From: a virus
Direction: 5' to 3' (one strand)
DNA: 64,000 bases
IMG/VR virus record: IMGVR_UViG_3300045988_010396
Coordinates: 37,395 to 101,394 of that record
The notes under the pieces are model-generated. The model was not told the origin of the DNA. It worked only from the letters and a program-made list of their open reading frames with translations, and searched no databases. The position numbers were made by a program, and so were the translations under genes. How positions within the stretch are numbered: position 1 is the first letter of the stretch; every line of letters begins with the position of its first letter. Positions 3,041 to 38,747 of this stretch are shown one piece after another.

Positions 3041-3245
3041 AGTAAGTAAATGCGTGTTACTGTACGCAACAATCATATGCAGCATTCTGTTTATAACAGG
3101 TGGTGACGCAATAATGTCAGTAGGTATTAAATACTTTCTGATATTTGGGTTAGTTTGTGTTGCTCTAATTTATCTATCTTATAAATTAATATCCAAGAAG
3201 GAGTTTGATTCCTTCACGGGATTTAACATTATAGATAAATTGTAG
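3033..3245 (+). CDS. Small membrane protein, 70 aa
   Basis: Two hydrophobic helices; start overlaps the previous ORF. Confidence 0.4.
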   Translation: MIKVSKCVLLYATIICSILFITGGDAIMSVGIKYFLIFGLVCVALIYLSYKLISKKEFDSFTGFNIIDKL

Positions 3246-3319: not shown

Positions 3320-3613
3320 ATGAGAATTATAGTAGTTTTTATATTTGCTTGCATTAGTCTTATAGCCAGTGCACAGCAATTCAAGCGTGAGGGTAATACC
3401 TTTGTGCAGGATACCACAAAAACTTTCAGAAAGTCTGAGGGTAAGGAGACCAAATACACCTACAAGGATAAGAATAATAAGGTATATCCTATATTCATTA
3501 CCTCTTCTGGAGCTGTGTATATAAACAAAATATCAGCAAAGACAGGTAAGGAATACAGAATGTACCTTCCCAAGGGTATCAAGGAAGCTATTGCCAAGGA
3601 GATAAAGCAATGA
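3320..3613 (+). CDS. Secreted small protein, 97 aa
   Basis: N-terminal signal peptide MRIIVVFIFACISLIASAQQ; Lys-rich mature part. Confidence 0.45.
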   Translation: MRIIVVFIFACISLIASAQQFKREGNTFVQDTTKTFRKSEGKETKYTYKDKNNKVYPIFITSSGAVYINKISAKTGKEYRMYLPKGIKEAIAKEIKQ

Positions 3614-3705: not shown

Positions 3706-4002
3706 ATGGTTTTGGTACATTCTTGTTTTGTATCTTGCTATGGCATGTCTTTTTTAACGATAAATAAGATGTCTGAGCTTCTTGTTACAATCCTTAACAA
3801 ACTAGGTTTGGGTAAAGGATGTAGAGTATACAACATATCTAACATGAAAAGATACATGTATGATGTGTTTGGAGACTCTATAAAGGTAGATATAATATCT
3901 CCTATATCTGTCAGTCTTGAAGCAGGTAGTAATAAAATCATTATCACTTATGAGATAGTGAACAGTACGATAAAGAGTCTGACTATTAAAGAGGTGTTAT
4001 AA
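3706..4002 (+). CDS. Hypothetical protein, 98 aa
   Basis: ORF only. Confidence 0.3.
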   Translation: MVLVHSCFVSCYGMSFLTINKMSELLVTILNKLGLGKGCRVYNISNMKRYMYDVFGDSIKVDIISPISVSLEAGSNKIIITYEIVNSTIKSLTIKEVL

Positions 4003-4009
4003 ATGGCTC

Positions 4010-4095
4010 ACTCCCTTAGCTCAGTTGGTTCCGCAAGGCTTGAGAGCATCGGACTTTTAATCCGAGGGTCATGGGTTCGAGTCCCATAGGGAGTA
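4010..4095 (+). tRNA. tRNA-Lys(UUU) with a 12-nt insertion in the D-loop
   Basis: Acceptor ACTCCCT/AGGGAGT 7 bp; D-stem GCTC/GAGC; anticodon stem TCGGA/TCCGA with loop CTTTTAA; T-arm ATGGG-TTCGAGT-CCCAT. The extra CCGCAAGGCTTG lies between the D-loop GGTT and the 3' D-stem. Confidence 0.7.
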
Positions 4096-4112: not shown

Positions 4113-4432
4113 GGGGCTGTATTTGGTCTTGACTGGTGGCTACTTGGTATGAGGACATGCAGAGACTGATGGAGAGACATCAAAACTTTAGGTGGCAACA
4201 GAATTTCTGCACCTGTAGCTCTTGCTGCTTAAGCAATCTACTGAGTTAGTCACTGACTTGGAAACAGAATAGTGACAAGACAAGATTTCTTGCATAGATA
4301 AATGCAAGTGGTGGACTATGTTGACAATCCAGTCAACCCCAGCAGAGAACCAACTGCATAATAAAGTGGTAAGCATGTGTAATCCTTATATTGAGAGCTA
4401 TTAGGACAGGGGTTCGACTCCCCTCAGCTCCA
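4113..4432 (+). ncRNA. ssrA: tmRNA (SsrA); tag ORF ...GGNRISAPVALAA*
   Basis: 5' end GGGGCTGTATTTGGTCTTGACTGG against E. coli GGGGCTGATTCTGGATTCGACGGG. 3' end GGACAGGGGTTCGACTCCCCTCAGCTCCA against GGACGCGGGTTCAACTCCCGCCAGCTCCA. Includes the G3:U wobble alanine identity pair. Internal reading frame ggc aac aga att tct gca cct gta gct ctt gct gct taa. Confidence 0.8.
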
Positions 4433-4508: not shown

Positions 4509-4811
4509 ATGTTAATAACAGAAAGAGCAAAAAGGAAAATAAATACTTTATTAGATAGTACTAATGATTGTATAAACTATCCTAAAACTAATAAAGATGG
4601 TTATGGGGATATTCAAGAGATTGTGGAGGGTAAAAAGCTCCACATGTTAGCTCATAGAGTATCTTATCAGTTATATACAGGAGAAGACATATCACCTGAT
4701 GATATAATATGTCATAGATGTGATAATCCTGCTTGTATTAATCCTAGACATTTGTTCAGAGGCACTCACTCAGATAATATTAAAGATAAGGTTTGTACCC
4801 ATTATTCATAA
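4509..4811 (+). CDS. HNH homing endonuclease
   Basis: Motif [14 protein letters not shown] and downstream HSDN (HNH fold). Confidence 0.7.
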
Positions 4812-5107
4812 GCGGTCGTAGCATAATTAGCGGTGACGCGGTAGTGGAATCCAATTACGACTATATTGTTTTCAAGAACTGGTGGTCATCAGGAAGATAC
4901 TTTACATGGACTAGAAGCAATGATATGTGGTGTGTTGGATGCTTCTACGGCACGGGCAAGGAGCTAATCGCTAAAGCCTACAAGGACAGCAAGGTGAGTG
5001 GTAGAGAGTATGAGAGAATAGTCAAATATGTAGAGCGGATTAAGAGAGACAGCAAGCCATCTTTGTGGCGGAGAATACTGTTTAATCTTAGCAAGCTCTG
5101 CAAATAG
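4793..5107 (+). CDS. Hypothetical protein, 104 aa
   Basis: ORF overlapping the HNH gene end; may be its C-terminal extension in another frame. Confidence 0.3.
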
Positions 5108-5129
5108 TATAAAATTAAACTACATCAGA

Positions 5130-5411
5130 ATGGCAAAGATTGTAAACAATGACAAGGGGTTCAAGGTAATCAGCTTGTCAACAGAGGATGCAGCATCTCT
5201 GGGCTTTGGTATAGATGGCTCAGGTACATGTATATGTATGCATTGTAATAAGGGGTGCCGTAGTGGAGACATCTATTACATTGCAGTGCTTCATGACACT
5301 ATGTGCAAGAAGTGCTATGAGAGGTGGATTAAGTCTGCTACAAGGTATGCAGAAGATATACCCATTGAAAATAGGAACTTCAACCACTATAAGGAGTGGC
5401 TGTGTCTGTGA
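5130..5411 (+). CDS. Cys-rich small protein (zinc-ribbon-like)
   Basis: CICMHCNKGC ... CKKCYERW cysteine pairs. Confidence 0.4.
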   Translation: MAKIVNNDKGFKVISLSTEDAASLGFGIDGSGTCICMHCNKGCRSGDIYYIAVLHDTMCKKCYERWIKSATRYAEDIPIENRNFNHYKEWLCL

Positions 5412-5611
5412 TTATTCTTATATTGTAGTGTACTATGTATTTCAAAGAAGATGAACCAATAAGAGTGCTTATGACAACACCTCTTCCTGACCCCTACTTA
5501 TAAGGGCAGTTATTGGTACTAAAGTTAAATTTATGTTAAAGGTAGGTCATTTGTTTGGTAATATCAAACTTTTGACTTACCTTTGCGGTGTTCAATTAAA
5601 CAACAGAGATT

Positions 5612-7035
5612 ATGTGTTCAAAAGTTAATCCTAACCTAAAGCCTGTACCTAAGTTTGAAAACACTCAACTGGCAGGTGGTTATGGTGCATTAGCTGCCAG
5701 GCAGTCCAATGTAGCATTGCTTAGAAGAGCAGTGCTGGCTAATCTCCTTTGAGAGGATGTAGCATATATGGATGGTGAGAGAGTAGCCAATGAAATACAG
5801 AGGTTAATACCTCTGTGCCCTGCTGAGGATGTATATAATATAGCTCTTGAAGCTAGGTTAATGCAGAAACTGAGGCATACTCCATTGTTTATAGCAGTGG
5901 AAATGTGCAAGTATCCTGAACATAAGTTATTTGTTAAGGACTTGCTACCAAAGATAGTTACAAGAGCTGATATGCTCACTGACTTCTTGGCTATATATAT
6001 ATATATTGGAAGGATGGCAAGCATCCTATCTGTAACCAAGCTAAGAAGGGTCTTGCTCTAGCCTTCCACAACTTCAATGAGTATAAGTTGGCTAAGTATG
6101 ACAGAGATGCTGCTATCAAGCTCAGGGATGTGATGTTCTTGGTACATGCAAAGCCTAGAAACCAGTATGAGCAGGAGTTGTTCAATAAGGTAGCTGAGAG
6201 AACTCTCACACCACCTGAGACATGGGAAGTCATGTTAAGTAGAGGTGATGACAAGAAGGCTACTTGGACTAAGCTCATTACAGAGGGTAAGATTGGAGGT
6301 CTGGCTATGTTGAGAAACATAGCTAATATGCAGAAGGCCAATGTGGATAGAAGGACTATCCAAGATGGCCTTAAGACACTGAGAAGCTCAATGCTATTAC
6401 CTCTTGACTTCTGGAAGGCTGCTAGAATGAACCCAGCATTTGAGAGAGACATTGAGGATGCTATGATAGAGGCATATAAGAACTTACCTAAACTTCCTGG
6501 CAAGACACTATTTATAGTGGATGTATCAGGTTCTATGGGTTTTTTAACCTCTGGTAGCTCTCAGTTCAACAGGATGGACCAAGCTTGTGCTATGGCTATC
6601 TTGGCAGCTAATCAGTGTGAGGACTATGAGCTTGTAGCTACAGCAGGTAATGATGATTCTAAAATAAGTGCCTCAGAGTGGATTGAATATCCAAAGAGAG
6701 GTTTTGCTCTTGCTCCACAGATAATGGATACCAGGCATAGGATTAGTGGTGGAGGTATATTCACCAGGCAGTGCCTAGAGTGGTGTAAGGATAAGTTCAA
6801 AGACAAGAAGTTTGATAGAATTATCATATTCTCAGACTCTCAAGACTGTGACTATCCTGAGAAGAGAGTACCTAAACCATTTGGTACATATAACTATATT
6901 GTAGATGTATCTGCTCATACAAGAGGAGTGAACTACAAGGGTGTATGGACTGCTGAGGTTTCAGGCTGGTCAGAACATTTCTTGACTTATATTGCAGCTC
7001 TTGAGGGATTGCAGAATAAGTTTGAGGAGCAATAA
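5612..7035 (+). pseudogene. rsr: Ro60/Rsr-like protein (TROVE domain plus vWA), interrupted by an in-frame TGA at 5750-5752 and a frameshift at the TA tract 5992-6006
   Basis: N-terminus VNPNLKPVPKFENTQLAGGYG resembles human Ro60 VNQMQPLNEKQIANSQDGY. Other TROVE matches: HTPLFIAVEMC to QEPMLFALAIC; KLRDVMFLVHAKP to KDLLRLSHLKP; GGLAMLRNIANMQKA to MPLTALLRNLGKMTA. The vWA MIDAS motif is FIVDVSGSM. The track ORF 6088 starts at TTG; homology continues upstream to the TA tract. Confidence 0.65.
5992..6006. repeat. (TA)7T dinucleotide tract inside the rsr-like gene
   Basis: tatatatatatatat. Loss of one TA unit fuses the frame-2 ORF 5768-6061 with the frame-1 ORF ending at 7035. Confidence 0.8.
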
Positions 7036-7042
7036 ATAAAAA

Positions 7043-7116
7043 GAGCCTATAAGTGAAAGTCAGAGTTACTTCAATATTGGGATATTTTGACACTCTGACA
7101 AAGTGTTCTATAGGCT
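7043..7116 (+). repeat. Free-standing copy A of the conserved AGTG...TTACTTCAA structured element (nested hairpins)
   Basis: Outer stem AGCCTATA/TATAGGCT and inner stem GTCAGAGT/ACTCTGAC around TACTTCAAT. The same core motif as the tRNA intervening sequences. Confidence 0.5.
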
Positions 7117-7187
7117 TTTAAGCTCTTCTATAGTTAGAAAGAGTTTCGAGACCCGATTGCCTTTGATGCATCTCGGGTCTTGCGATG

Positions 7188-7321
7188 GAGGAGTTAGCTC
7201 AGAGGTTAGAGCAGTTAAACAAGACACTCTACATACTGTTCTCTAGTAATAGTAGTGATTTGTAGAGATACTTCAAGCACTTTCATTGCACAGGTCATAG
7301 GTTCGAGTCCTATACTCCTCC
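7188..7321 (+). tRNA. tRNA-Glu(UUC) gene carrying a 61-nt intervening sequence (about 7216-7276) in the anticodon stem
   Basis: Acceptor GAGGAGT/ACTCCTC; D-arm GCTC-AGAGGTTA-GAGC; T-arm ATAGG-TTCGAGT-CCTAT. The anticodon loop CTTTCAT and 3' stem TGCAC get a perfect 5' stem GTGCA only if 7216-7276 is removed. Confidence 0.65.
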
Positions 7322-7385
7322 CAACTTTGTTGGATTTTGTGTGTTTTACCTCACTGGTATGTGAATATAGGTGAGGTTTTTACAA

Positions 7386-7524
7386 GGCGGAGTAGCTAAA
7401 TGGTTAAAGCAACACCCTTACAGAATTTATCTGGTAAAGCAGTAGTGGGTTGTCAGGGTTACTTCAAGGTTATAGCATTAGTTTTGGGTGCTAAAGAATG
7501 TAAGTTCGAGTCTTACCTCCGCCA
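7386..7524 (+). tRNA. tRNA-Pro(UGG) gene carrying a 66-nt intervening sequence (7407-7472 or 7412-7477) in the D-arm or at the 26/27 junction
   Basis: Acceptor GGCGGAG/CTCCGCC; D-stem GCT(A); intact anticodon arm TTAGT-TTTGGGT-GCTAA at 7478-7494; T-arm GTAAG-TTCGAGT-CTTAC. Confidence 0.65.
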
Positions 7525-7733
7525 CTTATTTACCTACCTCACCTAGCATAGTTATACAGGATAAGACCCATTATGATGGAGCACCGATGAAACTATCCTA
7601 GCCACGCTGGTATTGCTATTCAGTGAGTGAGAAAATGAATAGCCTCGAAGCATAGTGGAGATAACGTCAAGGAGTACCATCCTTAGCAGCTATGTAAAAT
7701 TGGTTGACAATCTGGAAAGACAGATAATAAAAT

Positions 7734-7861
7734 GGGGGAGTAGCTAAATTGGTTACTATACTCTTGCTGTTATTCTCTGGAAGCAGTAGTGTTAGCAAAG
7801 AGTTACTTCAAGCATTCATCTGGTAAATGAAAGTATATTGGTTCGAGTCCAATCTCCCCCG
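7734..7861 (+). tRNA. tRNA-Thr(GGU) gene carrying a 56-nt intervening sequence (about 7755-7810) in the D-loop before the 3' D-stem
   Basis: Acceptor GGGGGAG/CTCCCCC. The D-stem 5' GCTA and D-loop AATTGGTT are separated from the 3' D-stem AGC(A) by the insert. Anticodon arm TTCAT-CTGGTAA-ATGAA; T-arm ATTGG-TTCGAGT-CCAAT. Confidence 0.65.
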
Positions 7862-7865
7862 CAAA

Positions 7866-7999
7866 ATAGAGGTTAGTGAATGTTACAGTTACTTCAATTA
7901 TGATTAGTATATTGGTTTAACATTCAATCAAGAAAGGAGTAGATTTATTCACAACTTTTTTAACTCAACCCAACTGTGGCAGAGTTGTTCTACCTCTAT
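7866..7999 (+). repeat. Decayed copy E of the conserved element plus a degenerate tRNA-Thr 3' half
   Basis: TAGTGAAT...GTTACTTCAAT followed by GTATATTGGTTTAACATTCAAT, which resembles the T-arm of the 7734-7861 tRNA. Flanked by ATAGAGGT/ACCTCTAT. Confidence 0.4.
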
Positions 8000-14949: not shown

Positions 14950-15480
14950 ATGGCAAAAGCATTGATTTTAGCTAAGACTGGGTTTGGTAAATCCAGTTCA
15001 CTGGTTGGTGTACCCTCTGCTGGTATATTAGGCTTGGACCCTAAGGAGACTTATCTCCTTAGCTGTGTTAATAAGCCTCTGCCTATCAAGGGTGCATCTA
15101 AGATTTATGTGCCTATACCTATGCAGGGTATTACTCCTGCTAACTTAGGTTCAGTCATAGGTAAGGGCAACAGGATTATCACCAAGGATGCCAAGATTGT
15201 AGCTGCTGCTATAGAGTTGCTAATCAATTCACCCTTCAAGAACATAGTAGTTGATGATATGAACTATCTATCGCAGGACTACTATATGAAGAATGCCATG
15301 AAAGGTGGTTGGGACACTCCTAAGCAGATAGGTTACAATATGGGTCTTATCTTTGACCAGATTGACAATGTGCCTGAGGATAAGAACATTATCTGTATGG
15401 CTCACTTTGAGACCTACAAGGATAAGAATGGTGACTCCATCTCTTACAAGTACAAATCAACTGGTAACATGGTAGCATAA
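14950..15480 (+). CDS. AAA_24/Sak4-like P-loop ATPase (possibly exon 1 of an intron-split gene)
   Basis: N-terminal Walker A LAKTGFGKSS; Walker B NIVVDD. Confidence 0.45.
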   Translation: MAKALILAKTGFGKSSSLVGVPSAGILGLDPKETYLLSCVNKPLPIKGASKIYVPIPMQGITPANLGSVIGKGNRIITKDAKIVAAAIELLINSPFKNIVVDDMNYLSQDYYMKNAMKGGWDTPKQIGYNMGLIFDQIDNVPEDKNIICMAHFETYKDKNGDSISYKYKSTGNMVA

Positions 15481-15690
15481 CATCTGCCATTATCTATCTA
15501 ATTGCTGGAACACCCTAAAGACAACTGAACTACAAAGTAATTGGTAACAATAAGCTTGAATGTTTGAAAATCAGTTGTATTCTTAGTGATGGAGAAATGG
15601 GCAATCAGCAGCCAAGGGACTCTACGAGTTCAAGGTTCATCGACTATCCCCTGTTGTGGGGGAGTACATTTATAAAGTAATCAATTATAT

Positions 15691-16305
15691 TTGGAAATGG
15701 TAGACAATAGAGAAGTACACATTTATGCATTAAGACATCCTGATACCTTAGAAATAAGGTATGTCGGTAAAACAGTGAGAAAATTAAGTAGAAGGTTAGG
15801 GAATCATATTGCAAATGCTAAAGGTAACCAGCACAATAAGCATTTAAGTAATTGGATTCTTAATATCTTGAAGGAAAATAAGAAACCTGTAATAGAACTC
15901 TTGGAAACTTGTCAAAGTAATAACTGGCAAGAAAGAGAGCAATATTGGATTTCTCAATTTCCTAATCTGATAAATCTCACTGCTGGAGGAGATGGATGTG
16001 TAGGTTTTATTCATGATTCTAAAGCTATAGAAAAGATTAGACAATCTAAATTTGGTACTAAACATTCTGTAGAATTTAAGGAAGCTATGAGTAAAAGGCT
16101 TAAAGGTGTGCCTCTTAGTGAAGAACATAAAAGTAAAATAGGTTTAGCTAATAAGGGAAGGAAGGCTTCGGAAACTGCAAGAAAGAGGCTATCAGAATCC
16201 CACAAAGGTATTACTCAGAGTGAGGAATCCAAAAGAAAAAGAAGTGAATCTATTAAACTTTGGTGGACTAAGAGAAAGTCTATTGAAGATATAGTCAAAT
16301 CTTAA
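15691..16305 (+). CDS. GIY-YIG homing endonuclease with NUMOD-like repeats
   Basis: IYALRHPDTLEIRYVGKT...R..NH; repeated EEHKSKIG/SESHKG units as in I-TevI-type HEGs. Confidence 0.75.
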   Translation: MEMVDNREVHIYALRHPDTLEIRYVGKTVRKLSRRLGNHIANAKGNQHNKHLSNWILNILKENKKPVIELLETCQSNNWQEREQYWISQFPNLINLTAGGDGCVGFIHDSKAIEKIRQSKFGTKHSVEFKEAMSKRLKGVPLSEEHKSKIGLANKGRKASETARKRLSESHKGITQSEESKRKRSESIKLWWTKRKSIEDIVKS

Positions 16306-26797: not shown

Positions 26798-27822
26798 AAG
26801 ACATCTCATGGCAAGTTTCAGAGCCAACCTATAGGGCTGATAGTGCTATAAGCTATTCAACCCTAAGTAGATTTGAAAGGGAAGGGTGGAGAAAGCTTGG
26901 CTCACTCTTTGATAAGATTGAAACACCCTCACTCACATTTGGAAGTGCTGTTGATACTAAGCTGACTGATGGGGATGAGGCATTCAATGAGAGGTTCATT
27001 GTATGTGACTTCCCACCATTGTCAGATACATTGATAAGCATTACAAAGTTCCTCCACAAGAACTTCCATGAGAGCCATAGGAAACTCAGCATGATAGATG
27101 ATGCTGAGATTAGTAGGGCTGCATTGATGTTCAACTATTATGCTAATCCCAAGTATGAGAACTTTAGGGTAAAGAGTATTAAGGAGAGCTGTAGTGAATA
27201 CTATTCACTTCTTACATTAGCAGGAGACAGGACTGTACTATCACAGAATGACTATGCTGACGTAATGGCTTGTGTGGAAGAGTTAAAGACCAATTCAGCA
27301 ACCAAGTATTTCTTTAGCTCAAATCCTTTTGAGACTCAGATTGAGAAGGTGTTCCAGTTGAAGTTCAGAGCAGAGTTTCAAGGCATACCTGTCAGATGTA
27401 TGTTTGACGAGATTATTGTAGACCATGAGAAGAAGATAATATACCCTATAGACTTAAAGACTACAGGTCACCCTGAGGAAGAGTTTGAGGAGTCTTTCTC
27501 TCAATGGAGATATGATATTCAAGCCAAGCTATATACCTATATATTACAGGAGTGTATCAAGAATGATGAGTACTTCAAAGACTTCAAGATACAGCCCTAT
27601 CAGTTTGTAGTTATAAACAGAAGGACTGTAGCTCCTATTGTATGGGTGTTTGAAGGGAACTTTGGACAAGTAGACCTTAAAGATGACAAAGGTAATATAT
27701 TGAGGGATTGGAGGAAGATACTCAGTGAACTTCATTATTACCTGAGATACTCTGGCAAATATAGTATAAGGGCAATGGAAAATAACTGTGTATTAAAGAT
27801 AAATAATTTGACAATATGTTGA
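26773..27822 (+). CDS. PD-(D/E)xK exonuclease (RecB/Cas4/YqaJ-like)
   Basis: IYPIDLKTTG plus QAKLYTY (QxxxY) motifs. Confidence 0.5.
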   Translation: MEMERKSIKDISWQVSEPTYRADSAISYSTLSRFEREGWRKLGSLFDKIETPSLTFGSAVDTKLTDGDEAFNERFIVCDFPPLSDTLISITKFLHKNFHESHRKLSMIDDAEISRAALMFNYYANPKYENFRVKSIKESCSEYYSLLTLAGDRTVLSQNDYADVMACVEELKTNSATKYFFSSNPFETQIEKVFQLKFRAEFQGIPVRCMFDEIIVDHEKKIIYPIDLKTTGHPEEEFEESFSQWRYDIQAKLYTYILQECIKNDEYFKDFKIQPYQFVVINRRTVAPIVWVFEGNFGQVDLKDDKGNILRDWRKILSELHYYLRYSGKYSIRAMENNCVLKINNLTIC

Positions 27823-29576
27823 AAGTAGTTAAGAGAGACAGAAGTATTGAGGACTTTAATGCCCAAAAGGTAGTCAGTGCAGTCCAGAAGGCATTTGCAT
27901 CAGCGGGATGTGTTTTTTCTGAGTATCTGAACACAATGATACCTGCCTTGTTTGAAGAGGGGGATATTATTGGTGTAGAGGATATACAGGATAGAGTAGA
28001 GCAACTGCTGATGAATGACAAGCACTTCAAGGCTGCTAAGTCATATATCCTATATAGGGAGAAGCACAAGCAAGCCAGGTTTATTAGAGAAAGGATTGAT
28101 TATATGTCCAACTATGCAGATTCTGATGATAATGCTGCTAGTTCTTCAGAGACTGACCCTAATGCTAATGTAACCCAGAAGAATGTTGCCAATCTTGATG
28201 GGGAAGTTTATAAGACAGAGAATAGGATTATTCAGAGGCAAAGGATGAAGGATGAACTTAATATCCTTTATCCAGAGGTAGCAAAGCAGTATGAAGTGGA
28301 TATTGAGAACCATATATTCTACCCTCACGATGAAGCTAGTGTACCTACTTTGAAGTTCTATTGTCAGGCAGATACTCTTTATCCACTTATGACAGAAGGT
28401 GTAGGTAATATAGATGGTGTGACACCAACTCCTCCTAATGATTTACAATCATTTAGTGGACAAATAACTAATCTTACCTTCTTGCTTTCTTCTCAGTGTA
28501 AAGGTGCAGTAGCCTTTGGAGAATATTTCATTGCTCTGAACTATTACATCATTGCAGAGTTTGGGGATAAATGGTATGAGAAGCTTGATTGTGTTGTAAC
28601 GTCTCCTCATTGTAGGATTCAAAGAACAGTCAGAGATTTCATAGAGAAAGCCTTCAAGCAGTTTATCTATGGCATTAATCAACCTGCTGGTAATAGGTCA
28701 TATCAGAGTCCATTTACAAATGTATCTTATTATGACCATACATACTTTAGTTCATTGTTTGGAGAATTTTGTTATCCTGATGGAACTAAGCCTGAGTGGG
28801 CTGCAATTAATGTTCTTCAGAAGATGTTTATGAAGTTCTTCAATAAACTTAGAACCAAGCAGATTTTGACCTTCCCTGTTGAAACACTGGCAATGGTACA
28901 TGATGACAAGGATATTATAGACAGAGAATATAAGGATTTCTGCGCAGAAATGTATGCAGAAGGACACTCATTCTTTACTTATATTTCAGATAGTGCTGAT
29001 AGTCTTGCATCATGCTGTAGATTGAGAAATGAACTTGCAGAGAATACTTTCAATCCTACATCAGGTCTTACTGGTGTTATGACTGGTAGCTGCAATGTTA
29101 TCACTCTTAATATCAATAGGATTATACAGGATTGTGATAAGGCTTATGGGTTGAAGAGAAATGGTGGTTGGAAAGAGAATACCTCATTTATTAAGGATTA
29201 CTTAGTAGATATTCTTCATAGAGTCTATAAGTATCATATTGCTTATAAGACTATGCTCTATGAACAAGAAGAGAAAGGTATGTTTGCAGCTTGCAATGGT
29301 GGATATATCAGGGTGTCAAAGCTATACAGTACCGTAGGTATCAATGGCTTGAATGAGGCTGCTAAGTTCTTAGGTCTTGAAGTATCTAACAACAAGGACT
29401 ATATAGAGTTCTTGCAGTTGGTTCTTGGCACTATTAAGGAACAGAACAAGTTACACTCTATCCATGACAAGAAGAGACCTTTCCTGTTTAATTCTGAGGT
29501 AGTTCCTGCTGAGTCTCTCGGTGGTAAGAATTATAGATGGGATAAAGAGGATGGATTAGAACCAATGTCCATCTAA
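27816..29576 (+). CDS. nrdD: Anaerobic ribonucleoside-triphosphate reductase NrdD, exon 1 (lacks the Zn-ribbon and glycyl-radical C-terminus)
   Basis: Class III RNR-like core. The C-terminal CxxC and RVIGY motifs are absent here but present in ORF 30350-30685. Confidence 0.7.
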   Translation: MLKVVKRDRSIEDFNAQKVVSAVQKAFASAGCVFSEYLNTMIPALFEEGDIIGVEDIQDRVEQLLMNDKHFKAAKSYILYREKHKQARFIRERIDYMSNYADSDDNAASSSETDPNANVTQKNVANLDGEVYKTENRIIQRQRMKDELNILYPEVAKQYEVDIENHIFYPHDEASVPTLKFYCQADTLYPLMTEGVGNIDGVTPTPPNDLQSFSGQITNLTFLLSSQCKGAVAFGEYFIALNYYIIAEFGDKWYEKLDCVVTSPHCRIQRTVRDFIEKAFKQFIYGINQPAGNRSYQSPFTNVSYYDHTYFSSLFGEFCYPDGTKPEWAAINVLQKMFMKFFNKLRTKQILTFPVETLAMVHDDKDIIDREYKDFCAEMYAEGHSFFTYISDSADSLASCCRLRNELAENTFNPTSGLTGVMTGSCNVITLNINRIIQDCDKAYGLKRNGGWKENTSFIKDYLVDILHRVYKYHIAYKTMLYEQEEKGMFAACNGGYIRVSKLYSTVGINGLNEAAKFLGLEVSNNKDYIEFLQLVLGTIKEQNKLHSIHDKKRPFLFNSEVVPAESLGGKNYRWDKEDGLEPMSI

Positions 29577-30265
29577 AACCTCTTTTAATTGACTCAGAAG
29601 TCCCTATGGGATTATGAGGGGCAAGCAAGGGAAACCTGTGCAGCCTGACAGACTAAACAAAGAGGACTTTAATATACAATCTGTGAAGATAGAATATTAA
29701 AGTATGCAATAGTCGGAACTCTATGGTAACATAGAGAGGTTAATAGAAATATTAACCCATTTATTAGAAATATGGTTATAATCTTGCATAATTGGGATAA
29801 AAGTTTTAACTTTGCTCCCAAAATGATTAAGTATGGAGACTAAATTATGTAAGATTTGTGGTAGAGAATTACCATTGGAGATGTTTGATGAAGGAAGACA
29901 TCAATGTAAGGATTGTAGAAGAGCTTATAGGAAGCAAAGGAGATTGGAACATCCTGAGATTCACAGGGCACAAGCTACAAGAAGGCAGGATAGGCAAGGA
30001 GAATGGCTTAATAGCATAAAAACTCCCTGTATTGTCTGTGGAGAAGCAGAACCTGTTTGTATTGACTTTCATCATATCAATCCAGTAGATAAGGAATTTA
30101 CCATAGGTAAGTATAGAAGTAGGAGCAAGGAGTGGCTTCTGCAAGAAGTAAGTAAGTGTGTTTGCTTATGTGCTAATTGTCATAGGAAAGTACATGCTGG
30201 TTTGATAAACTTAAATAACTATATTGCTAATGAATCACCTCTCTGCACAACGGGAGAGGGTGTAA
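29577..30265 (+). mobile_element. Putative group I intron interrupting nrdD; carries an HNH homing endonuclease
   Basis: About 690 nt between the two NrdD-homologous reading frames. Contains HNH ORF 29833-30273. Analogous to the T4 nrdD (sunY) intron. Confidence 0.5.
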
Positions 30266-30273
30266 CAGAATGA
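29833..30273 (+). CDS. HNH endonuclease (intron-encoded)
   Basis: CKICG...C.DC zinc finger and HHINPVDK...CANCHRKVH HNH motif. Confidence 0.7.
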   Translation: METKLCKICGRELPLEMFDEGRHQCKDCRRAYRKQRRLEHPEIHRAQATRRQDRQGEWLNSIKTPCIVCGEAEPVCIDFHHINPVDKEFTIGKYRSRSKEWLLQEVSKCVCLCANCHRKVHAGLINLNNYIANESPLCTTGEGVTE

Positions 30274-30685
30274 TTGGGTCCCTGAAGATGAAAATCTTTA
30301 CAACTCATATTTCTTTGATGCCCATAATGATACTTCAGTACTAGATAAGATGATTCTGCATGGAAGGCAGACAGCACAATATTGTGACGGAGGCTCAGCT
30401 TGTCATATCAATCTTGAAGACCATCTGAGCAAAGAGCAGTATCTCAAGCTGATAGACTTTGCTGTAGCTAATGGAACAAACTACTTCACATTTAATATCC
30501 CTAATAGTAAGTGTGATGATTGTGGTTACATTACTAAGCATCCTATCACTGAGTGTCCTAAGTGTCATAGTAAGAACATTACTCAATATACAAGGGTTAT
30601 AGGATATTTAAGACCTATTAAGTCCTTTGGTAAGGATAGACAAATAGAGGCTAACAAGAGAGTATATAGTAATAATATAGAATAA
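30266..30685 (+). CDS. nrdD: NrdD exon 2: C-terminal Zn-ribbon and glycyl-radical domain
   Basis: Frame open from 30266. Motifs ENLYNSYFFDAH, CDDCGY...CPKCH and the glycyl radical motif TRVIGYLRP. Confidence 0.65.
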   Translation, partial: QNDWVPEDENLYNSYFFDAHNDTSVLDKMILHGRQTAQYCDGGSACHINLEDHLSKEQYLKLIDFAVANGTNYFTFNIPNSKCDDCGYITKHPITECPKCHSKNITQYTRVIGYLRPIKSFGKDRQIEANKRVYSNNIE

Positions 30686-38327: not shown

Positions 38328-38747
38328 ATGCCAAAGATAATTTTATGTAGAGGTATTCAAGGTAGTGGTAAGACTACATGGGCTAAACAATGGGTACTTG
38401 AAGACCCAGAACATAGAGTAAGATTTAACAATGATGATATCAGAAATATGTTAGGTAAGTATTGGGTACCTAGTAGAGAGCCTATAGTTACAATTATGAA
38501 AAACAGCTTTATACAAGGGGCTGCTATTTTCCATCATGACGTTGTAATAGACAATATGAATCTTAATAGTACAGAAGTTGAGTACTGGAAAAGGACAGCC
38601 AAGGTGTTTAATTATGACCTTGAAATCAAGAATTTCTTTACTCCTCTTCAAGAGTGTATAGATAGAGATTCTAAGAGACCTAATCCTATAGGGGAAAAGG
38701 TTATAAGAAATACGTATGAAAGGTATAAAGATATTCTTGAAGCATAA
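38328..38747 (+). CDS. pnk: Polynucleotide 5'-kinase (T4 Pnk kinase-domain-like, stand-alone)
   Basis: MPKIILCRGIQGSGKTTWAKQW...NNDDIRNM...VVIDNMNLN aligns to T4 Pnk [22 protein letters not shown]...NRDDYRQS...VIISDTNLN. Confidence 0.65.
   Translation: MPKIILCRGIQGSGKTTWAKQWVLEDPEHRVRFNNDDIRNMLGKYWVPSREPIVTIMKNSFIQGAAIFHHDVVIDNMNLNSTEVEYWKRTAKVFNYDLEIKNFFTPLQECIDRDSKRPNPIGEKVIRNTYERYKDILEA

Follow-up and report, generated by a model that had tools for sequence, protein, structure and literature searches.

Phage tRNA-Lys(UUU) genes with a conserved GNRA-capped hairpin in the D-loop

tRNA-Lys(UUU) is a recurrent target of the defense nucleases PrrC, RloC and AriB (the Toprim nuclease of PARIS), to which phages respond with tRNA copies of their own (PMC10264068, PMC12409363). 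The main targets of AriB are Lys(UUU) and Thr(UGU); its second monomer was modelled on D-loop bases U16-U17, a U16C change impairs cleavage, and the extra Lys(UUU) copy encoded by phage T5, which neutralizes PARIS, owes its resistance in part to positions elsewhere than in the anticodon loop, among them C16 in the D-loop (PMC12409363). These data make the D-loop face of the tRNA a demonstrated recognition determinant. Other phage tRNAs carry substitutions in the anticodon loop and have been proposed to evade nucleases through these changes (PMC10264068).

Here we describe a phage tRNA-Lys(UUU) gene that is altered in a different way, by a small stem-loop inserted in the D-loop. It was identified in a 64,000-nt stretch of viral DNA, hereafter the window, from a crAss-like gut phage of the Crassvirales, Steigviridae type, whose relatives include cr106_1, cr126_1, cr116_1 and the Bacteroides phages DAC15 and DAC17. 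Like the T5 gene, this is a phage-encoded extra copy of Lys(UUU); unlike the T5 tRNA, which is of normal size and differs by point substitutions, it adds a structured 12-14 nt and keeps U16 and U17, and resistance itself is conjectural here (PMC12409363). It also resembles the phage tRNAs with modified anticodon loops in being an altered copy of a targeted species, although its own anticodon loop matches the CUUUUAA consensus, which is invariant, and what sets it apart is an appendage on the elbow (PMC10264068). Outside of the phage world, a parallel exists with archaeal D-loop introns, in which a short insert likewise occupies the D-loop and its exact removal restores a canonical tRNA. The insert differs from these introns in that it has no bulge-helix-bulge, is found in a bacterial phage without known splicing endonuclease, and has a GNRA stem conserved as structure. 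A precedent for a retained stem-loop that projects from the tRNA core and has a role in recognition is offered by class II tRNAs (Leu, Ser and bacterial Tyr) with their long variable arm, and the Lys hairpin can be likened to this arm if, as we infer, it too is retained; however, the class II arm stands at positions 44-48, whereas the hairpin stands at D-loop position 20a/21 of a class I Lys tRNA and is found in phages only. In the searchable literature, no phage tRNA was described as having a D-loop hairpin or insertion, and we class the hairpin as a new structural variant among phage copies of nuclease-targeted tRNAs.

The gene occupies positions 4010-4095 of the window on the plus strand, spans 86 nt with no encoded CCA, and matched the Rfam tRNA model (RF00005) at 66.3 bits (E = 3e-12; threshold, 29 bits), with a 14-nt D-loop insertion as its sole departure from the model (cmscan). 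Direct reading of this strand gave a 7-bp acceptor stem (ACTCCCT, 4010-4016, with AGGGAGT, 4088-4094), U8 and A9 (4017-4018), a 4-bp D-stem (GCTC, 4019-4022, with GAGC, 4044-4047), an anticodon arm with a 5-bp stem (TCGGA-CTTTTAA-TCCGA, 4049-4065; anticodon UUU at 4056-4058), the variable loop GGGTC (4066-4070), a T-arm with a 5-bp stem (ATGGG-TTCGAGT-CCCAT, 4071-4087, also consistent with pairing across the family) and the discriminator A73 (A4095). The D-loop (4023-4043) reads AGTTGGTT-CCGCAAGGCTTG-A and measures 21 nt, as opposed to the canonical ~7-11 nt, yet keeps A14, G15, U16, U17, G18, G19, U20, U20a and A21. The tertiary-contact set (U8, A14, R15-Y48, G18, G19, A21 and T54-Psi55-C56) is complete, and the identity elements of bacterial class II LysRS (U34, U35, U36 and A73) are present. 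Comparison across the family placed the 12-nt insert CCGCAAGGCTTG at 4031-4042, between U20a and A21, where C4031-C4032 can pair with G4037-G4038 around a GCAA tetraloop (4033-4036), followed by a CUUG 3' linker (4039-4042). An earlier reading made from the sequence only, which had described an otherwise intact tRNA-Lys(UUU) with a 12-nt insertion and a 21-nt D-loop, was therefore correct on each of these points.

ARAGORN could not type this gene. The intron-permissive ARAGORN run proposed as a check by the sequence-only reading still returned ‘tRNA-???’, as did the default mode, but the gene minus the 12 nt was typed as a clean, standard 74-nt tRNA-Lys(ttt). Phage tRNA censuses and recoding analyses will thus miss such genes, since standard tRNA finders mis-type them. 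The body of the tRNA looks host-like (GCTCAGTTGG...GAGC, GGTTCGAGTCC). Taken in isolation, the insert folds at -0.5 kcal/mol, the 2-bp stem alone being marginally stable, and the D-stem is missing from the minimum-free-energy fold of the whole molecule and present in the centroid fold. Between positions 3500 and 9000, Rfam searches at a relaxed threshold matched no ribozyme, Y RNA or YrlA within tRNA-Lys or in its vicinity. The identical gene and insert were recovered from at least four other, independent assemblies (L001, L015, L042 and L065), along with a version that differs by one substitution (L040), which excludes the assembly insertion that the sequence-only reading had raised against its own interpretation.

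To delineate the distribution of the hairpin, public collections were scanned with a pattern combining a Lys-type D-arm, a gap of 9-30 nt and a UUU anticodon arm, which yielded 12 loci in viral contigs and 54 in metagenome contigs. The same scan of 185,579 bacterial and archaeal species genomes returned two loci, one of which is an assembly duplication (L026); the sole real match (L025) lies on a contig binned with a Cytophagales genome. This contig is probably phage, given that it carries a 13-tRNA array adjoining NAD-salvage and homing-endonuclease genes. Two additional scans for the D-arm and hairpin, in which the anticodon was ignored, detected 19 viral loci, including 7 new ones, and all 19 are Lys(UUU). 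Among 50,697 GenBank phage records queried by BLAST with two hairpin subtypes, only normal-length tRNA-Lys was found, aligned with a gap. In total, the comparison with related phages suggested by the sequence-only reading led to 48 distinct hairpin-bearing tRNA-Lys(UUU) genes from 68 phage and metagenome loci, with the insert at one shared site, and to relatives that carry a normal-length copy as well. These counts leave out five assembly duplications (L026, L027, L036, L052 and L062), which were rejected as insert carriers. The carrier contigs belong to Crassvirales and other phages; where long, they range from 100 to 380 kb, and they originate from human gut, other IMG and ENA samples, marine samples (TARA) and activated sludge. 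The distribution of the D-loop hairpin is restricted to phages and almost never bacterial.

The 48 inserts all lie between U20a (or U20b) and A21, and all follow one plan, namely a linker, a stem of 2-3 bp closed by a tetraloop, and a second linker. Stems are CC/GG in 26 genes, GC/GC in 17, GGC/GCC in 3, and GGG/CCC and UC/GA in one each. A GNRA tetraloop is present in 43 of the 48 genes (GUAA in 16, GAAA in 14, GCAA in 11, GGAA in 2), with all four bases occurring at N, while the other five carry GUAU (two genes), AUAU, GUUAA or a 6-nt loop. Because MAFFT (alignment A1) did not bring hairpins from different subtypes into register, covariation was tabulated by hand from 22 insert types. For instance, the ATCC-GAAA-GGTGT subtype has a Cytophagales counterpart, ATTC-GTAA-GATGT, in which the inner C-G pair is replaced by U-A, and in both of these types outer A-U and U·G pairs can lengthen the stem around a bulged U. 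Linkers are U-rich, with a conserved UU...CUWG-A in the crAss type. A UU/AA pairing proposed within the insert by an automatic hairpin finder was spurious and was discarded.

The genes that carry these hairpins are under the normal constraints of a tRNA. Cloverleaf pairing reaches 99.2% in 31 diverse members, with compensatory double changes at 15 of 21 pairs; this score was reached by none of 500 shuffles, and no slid register came near the observed values. U8, A14, G15, G18, G19, U20, A21, the D-stem and the CUUUUAA anticodon loop are invariant in the same 31-member alignment (A1). By this pattern of substitution, the hairpin carriers are independently evolving functional tRNAs, and the insert is thus maintained within constrained genes. 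The D-loop hairpin is a selected feature. The varying N of the GNRA loop and the changes in the stem suggest that selection favors a compact, stable protrusion, as opposed to a ligand site recognized by sequence or a fit to one tetraloop receptor.

The hairpin is specific to Lys(UUU), in part as a matter of ascertainment because the scan patterns were anchored on a Lys-type D-arm, and given exceptions in two contigs. Within arrays of 10-23 tRNA genes (L002, L007, L010, L019 and L021), the long D-loop is found in Lys(UUU) alone, and the hairpin tRNAs of L054 and L072 are Lys(UUU) as well. The exceptions are a Gly(UCC) in L037, which has the same hairpin as the Lys of that contig, and a Gly(UCC) and a Thr(UGU) in the marine contig L055. 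Two close relatives of the window phage (L042 and L065), both with the identical hairpin-Lys and a tmRNA, also encode an array of 17-18 ordinary tRNAs ~5 kb from the hairpin gene, among which are a Lys(CUU) and a 74-nt Lys(UUU) whose sequence diverges strongly (D-arm GCAT/ATGC). Three other contigs (L023, L046 and L073) similarly carry both a hairpin and a normal-length Lys(UUU). Judging from this co-occurrence in relatives, the hairpin gene is a second, specialized Lys(UUU) copy; the corresponding region of the window phage would lie upstream of the window start.

The immediate neighborhood of the gene is as the sequence-only reading had reported. A phage tmRNA (4113-4435, plus strand; Rfam RF00023, 83.1 bits) starts 17 nt downstream of tRNA-Lys and is probably co-transcribed with it, and the same pairing was observed in L001 and L015. 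A free-standing HNH endonuclease ORF follows on the plus strand (4509-4811; Pfam HNH_3, E = 4.8e-7; PHROG endonuclease, E = 3e-20), for which no link to the D-loop insert was found. Further away, the window encodes a polynucleotide-kinase-like (PNK-like) ORF (38328-38747; PHROG 505, E = 6e-31), while tblastn detected no homologue of the cr116_1 RNA ligase within the 64 kb. By its tmRNA, cr106_1 is the nearest deposited relative, and upstream of the tmRNA it has a tRNA-Arg and an odd 88-nt ‘tRNA-Ile’ but no hairpin Lys. This ‘tRNA-Ile’ (3904-3991 of L081) has an irregular anticodon and variable region and scores just 46 bits. The tag peptide ASGGLC that ARAGORN assigned to the tmRNA of the window (4190-4231) is probably wrong, as the frame in the Rfam alignment register is GGNRISAPVALAA-stop, with a canonical ...ALAA ending. 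Elsewhere in the window, the nrdD gene (anaerobic ribonucleotide reductase) seems to be split into an N-terminal part (27816-29576) and a C-terminal fragment (30350-30685) with an HNH ORF in between (29833-30273), which suggests an intron or homing-endonuclease insertion, and the only Rfam group I intron match (15380-15761) is barely over threshold (51 vs 50 bits).

We propose that the hairpin shields the phage tRNA-Lys from nucleases. The gene product would be a tRNA-Lys(UUU) that works in elongation, in which the hairpin is grafted between U20a and A21 of a host-like body. The mature, functional tRNA is likely to retain the hairpin, and the L-shaped core and the G18/G19 contacts with the T-loop should then be left intact, since every tertiary-contact nucleotide is conserved. 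In established tRNA structure, nucleotides 20a and 20b sit on the outside of the elbow, and the hairpin would project outward from its D-loop face. Its role there would be steric, namely to stop a Lys(UUU)-targeting nuclease, for example of the PARIS AriB type, PrrC/RloC-like, or a Bacteroidota equivalent, from docking productively on the D-loop face; alternatively, it may turn tRNA-Lys into a non-cleavable decoy or competitor. LysRS reads the anticodon and A73, hence the hairpin tRNA should still be charged, and its use by EF-Tu and the ribosome should also persist. The phage could then keep decoding AAA while the host tRNA-Lys is destroyed, and the tmRNA encoded 17 nt downstream may help clear ribosomes stalled at Lys codons. 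To this account as a whole, in which the hairpin is kept and blocks or decoys a tRNA-Lys-directed nuclease, we assign a probability of roughly 40%.

Nuclease evasion is plausible in that the hairpin is specific to Lys(UUU), that it is distributed among phages only, and that close relatives encode a second Lys(UUU). The gene shares some features with the nuclease-resistant tRNA of T5 in that it is phage-encoded, has a UUU anticodon, and is joined by a second Lys(UUU) in L042, L065, L023, L046 and L073. Two of the three hairpin-bearing species of L055, Lys(UUU) and Thr(UGU), are also the main targets of AriB, an overlap that supports the account circumstantially. Further circumstantial support comes from the adjacent tmRNA and from L039, in which the hairpin-Lys gene (3104-3147) is flanked by a PNK-like gene (1174-1602) and a T4 Rnl1-like RNA ligase gene (4945-6018); phage T4 repairs cleaved tRNA-Lys with a PNK and RNA ligase pair. 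The two bases read by AriB in E. coli tRNA-Lys, U16 and U17, are unchanged in the hairpin tRNA, so that any protection would have to be steric. A hairpin on the elbow could also clash with RNase P, the L1 stalk or the A-site finger.

To our knowledge, phage counter-defense tRNAs described so far rely on point substitutions. If the proposed shielding is true, a conserved, phage-specific hairpin on tRNA-Lys(UUU), which nucleases attack more often than any other tRNA species, would represent a new form of nuclease escape, by steric masking as opposed to point mutation. It would also point to elbow-reading nucleases, possibly undiscovered ones, in gut Bacteroidota. The tolerance of the D-loop 20a/21 site to an added helix would be useful for tRNA engineering. 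More tentatively, these genes may define a class of ‘armoured’ elongator tRNAs in phages of Bacteroidota and other bacteria, in which a retained GNRA-capped hairpin would make Lys(UUU), and occasionally Thr(UGU) or Gly(UCC), immune to tRNA-cleaving defenses that read the elbow or D-loop face, and which would include the first class I tRNA in nature to work on the ribosome with an added D-loop helix; we regard this generalization as doubtful.

The window contains other tRNA genes with inserts, which have to be considered alongside the hairpin. Three tRNA scaffolds carry inserts of 55-65 nt: tRNA-Glu(UUC) (7188-7322), where the insert separates positions 28 and 29 of the anticodon stem; tRNA-Pro(UGG) (7386-7524), with the insert in the D-loop; and tRNA-Thr(GGU) (7734-7861), with the insert in the D-loop after GGTTA. 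All three were missed or shortened by ARAGORN and at the Rfam gathering threshold, and ARAGORN in intron mode mis-typed them as Ser, Cys and Asn. The large inserts share a common plan (alignment A2) composed of a covarying outer P1 stem (ACUCU.../...AGAGU), a core with an invariant CUCU/AG(U)AG helix and its bulged U, a variable but covarying apical hairpin, and a 3' tail (GUUACUUC, (G/A)UUACUUC). A pattern scan identified this module in ~18 further distinct tRNA or tRNA-like genes of viral contigs, nearly all of which are at most ~2 kb from a TROVE/Ro60 gene, whereas chance matches within coding sequence lack a TROVE neighbor. In the window, the array begins 150 nt past the end of a TROVE ORF (7035). 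The insert is probably a Y-RNA-like, Ro60-binding module housed in a tRNA scaffold, as suggested by its sequence and genomic context. YrlA-type bacterial and phage Y RNAs, which are bound by Ro60/TROVE proteins, are likewise tRNA-related RNAs encoded near TROVE, and the module looks like a relative in spirit, albeit with a different architecture that is not recognized by Rfam (PMC4201824). The tRNA-Lys, unlike YrlA-type RNAs, is complete with its anticodon, lacks the TROVE-linked module, and has no Rfam Y RNA or YrlA match.

Several additional features of this region were recorded. Homologous module tRNAs of close relatives have the same acceptor and T-arms but a switched anticodon, which is unusual for decoding tRNAs: the anticodon set is GGU/CAU/UUU for 7734-7861 of the window vs L111, L092/L099/L107 and L097, UGG/UGU/UUA for 7386-7524 vs L040, L101 and L120, and UUC/UUU for 7188-7322 vs L040 and L105. 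Two stand-alone hairpins (7040-7119 and 7876-7927), each with AGUUACUUCAAU in the loop, flank the tRNA array, and TACTTCAA occurs 15 times in the window vs 4.6 expected. The ~190 nt between the Pro and Thr scaffolds (7540-7730) are non-coding, with no Rfam match, and may be another small RNA. The TROVE/Ro60 gene itself (~5640-7035) appears broken. Its N-terminal part is interrupted by an in-frame TGA (position 5750, context NLL*EDVAY, compatible with Trp), and the frame changes between ~6061 and 6088, which leaves 6088-7035 as the sole stretch with a clean ORF; recoding of TGA, a frameshift and a pseudogene are all possible.

The proximity of TROVE genes raises an alternative in which the hairpin, also kept in the mature RNA, would be a docking handle or tuning element bound by a phage or host factor, such as the TROVE/Ro60 protein, a modification enzyme (e.g., for U20/U20a) or a ribosomal contact, and would mark, stabilize, sequester or regulate tRNA-Lys. 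Hairpin-Lys and a TROVE gene are at most 10 kb apart in the window, L040, L002, L070, L030 and L050, the linkers (UU...CUWG-A in the crAss type) are conserved beyond the needs of a spacer, and bacterial Y RNAs bound by Ro60 are known to mimic tRNA (PMC4201824). However, most hairpin-Lys loci have no TROVE gene in the ~7 kb examined on each side, and no motif of the TROVE-linked module recurs in the hairpin. The free N of the tetraloop (A, C, G or U) and the lineage-dependent stem sequence further argue against sequence-specific recognition. Hence, we consider a docking role somewhat unlikely.

A different reading, in which the 12-13 nt are a miniature intron removed after transcription to give a normal 9-nt D-loop, seems improbable. 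Archaeal tRNAs bear short introns at D-loop positions, exact deletion of the insert here yields a perfect canonical tRNA-Lys, and this phage lineage has RNA-processing genes, including the PNK-like ORF of the window and the RNA ligase of cr116_1, although the latter has no homologue in the 64-kb window. Yet an archaeal bulge-helix-bulge requires a 4-bp helix and two 3-nt bulges, whereas the insert forms a 2-3-bp stem and a tetraloop, with no such bulges on either side. Twelve nucleotides in a D-loop are also far below the size of a group I or group II intron; a group I intron has a P1-P9 catalytic core of ~200 nt or more and usually occupies the anticodon loop. We know of no bacterial or phage splicing machinery for this D-loop position, and selection for a GNRA cap is what would be expected of a retained structure.

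The sequence-only reading had also entertained the idea that the hairpin derives from the large element at 7188-7861, as a remnant or in miniature, based on a shared insertion point with tRNA-Thr. Both inserts do lie in the same genome and on the 3' side of the D-loop, at nearly the same site after GGTTA, so that the positional claim holds as a close correspondence and not as a stated identity, and this D-loop site seems to tolerate insertions. The proposed descent did not withstand comparison. The CUCU/AG(U)AG helix, P1 stem and GUUACUUC tail are all absent from 4023-4043, so that the hairpin shares no motif with an element defined by its invariant UUCUCU...AGUAGUG core and its tail. In addition, the large element is not confined to this site, since it is also inserted at position 28/29 of the anticodon stem and in the D-loop on its 5' side, and it was not seen in most hairpin loci, while the GNRA hairpin shows covariation of its own in 48 genes from many lineages. 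Judged by their motifs, the large inserts and the Lys hairpin are different entities, and derivation of one from the other is very improbable. Least credible is a neutral insertion, pseudogene or assembly artefact, which would account for the failure of ARAGORN to type the gene but runs against the identical insert in independent assemblies, the conserved and covarying structure in 48 distinct genes, and the fully intact tRNA core positions.

Two other types of unusual RNA were noted on large phage contigs from the same searches. A tRNA-Trp(CCA) in L010 (2915-3005) and L073 (1234-1324) and a tRNA-Pro(UGG) in L019 (6050-6138) measure 89-91 nt, and those of L010 and L019 have an apparent long variable arm, that of L073 being judged by length alone. 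Matches to the abiF RNA motif or to the RAGATH-1 hammerhead, the latter barely under threshold, are located at 507-544 of L006 and at 3985-4088 and 13403-13440 of L007, and in these two large gut phage contigs the abiF motif (RF03085, 50 bits) adjoins the tRNA arrays.
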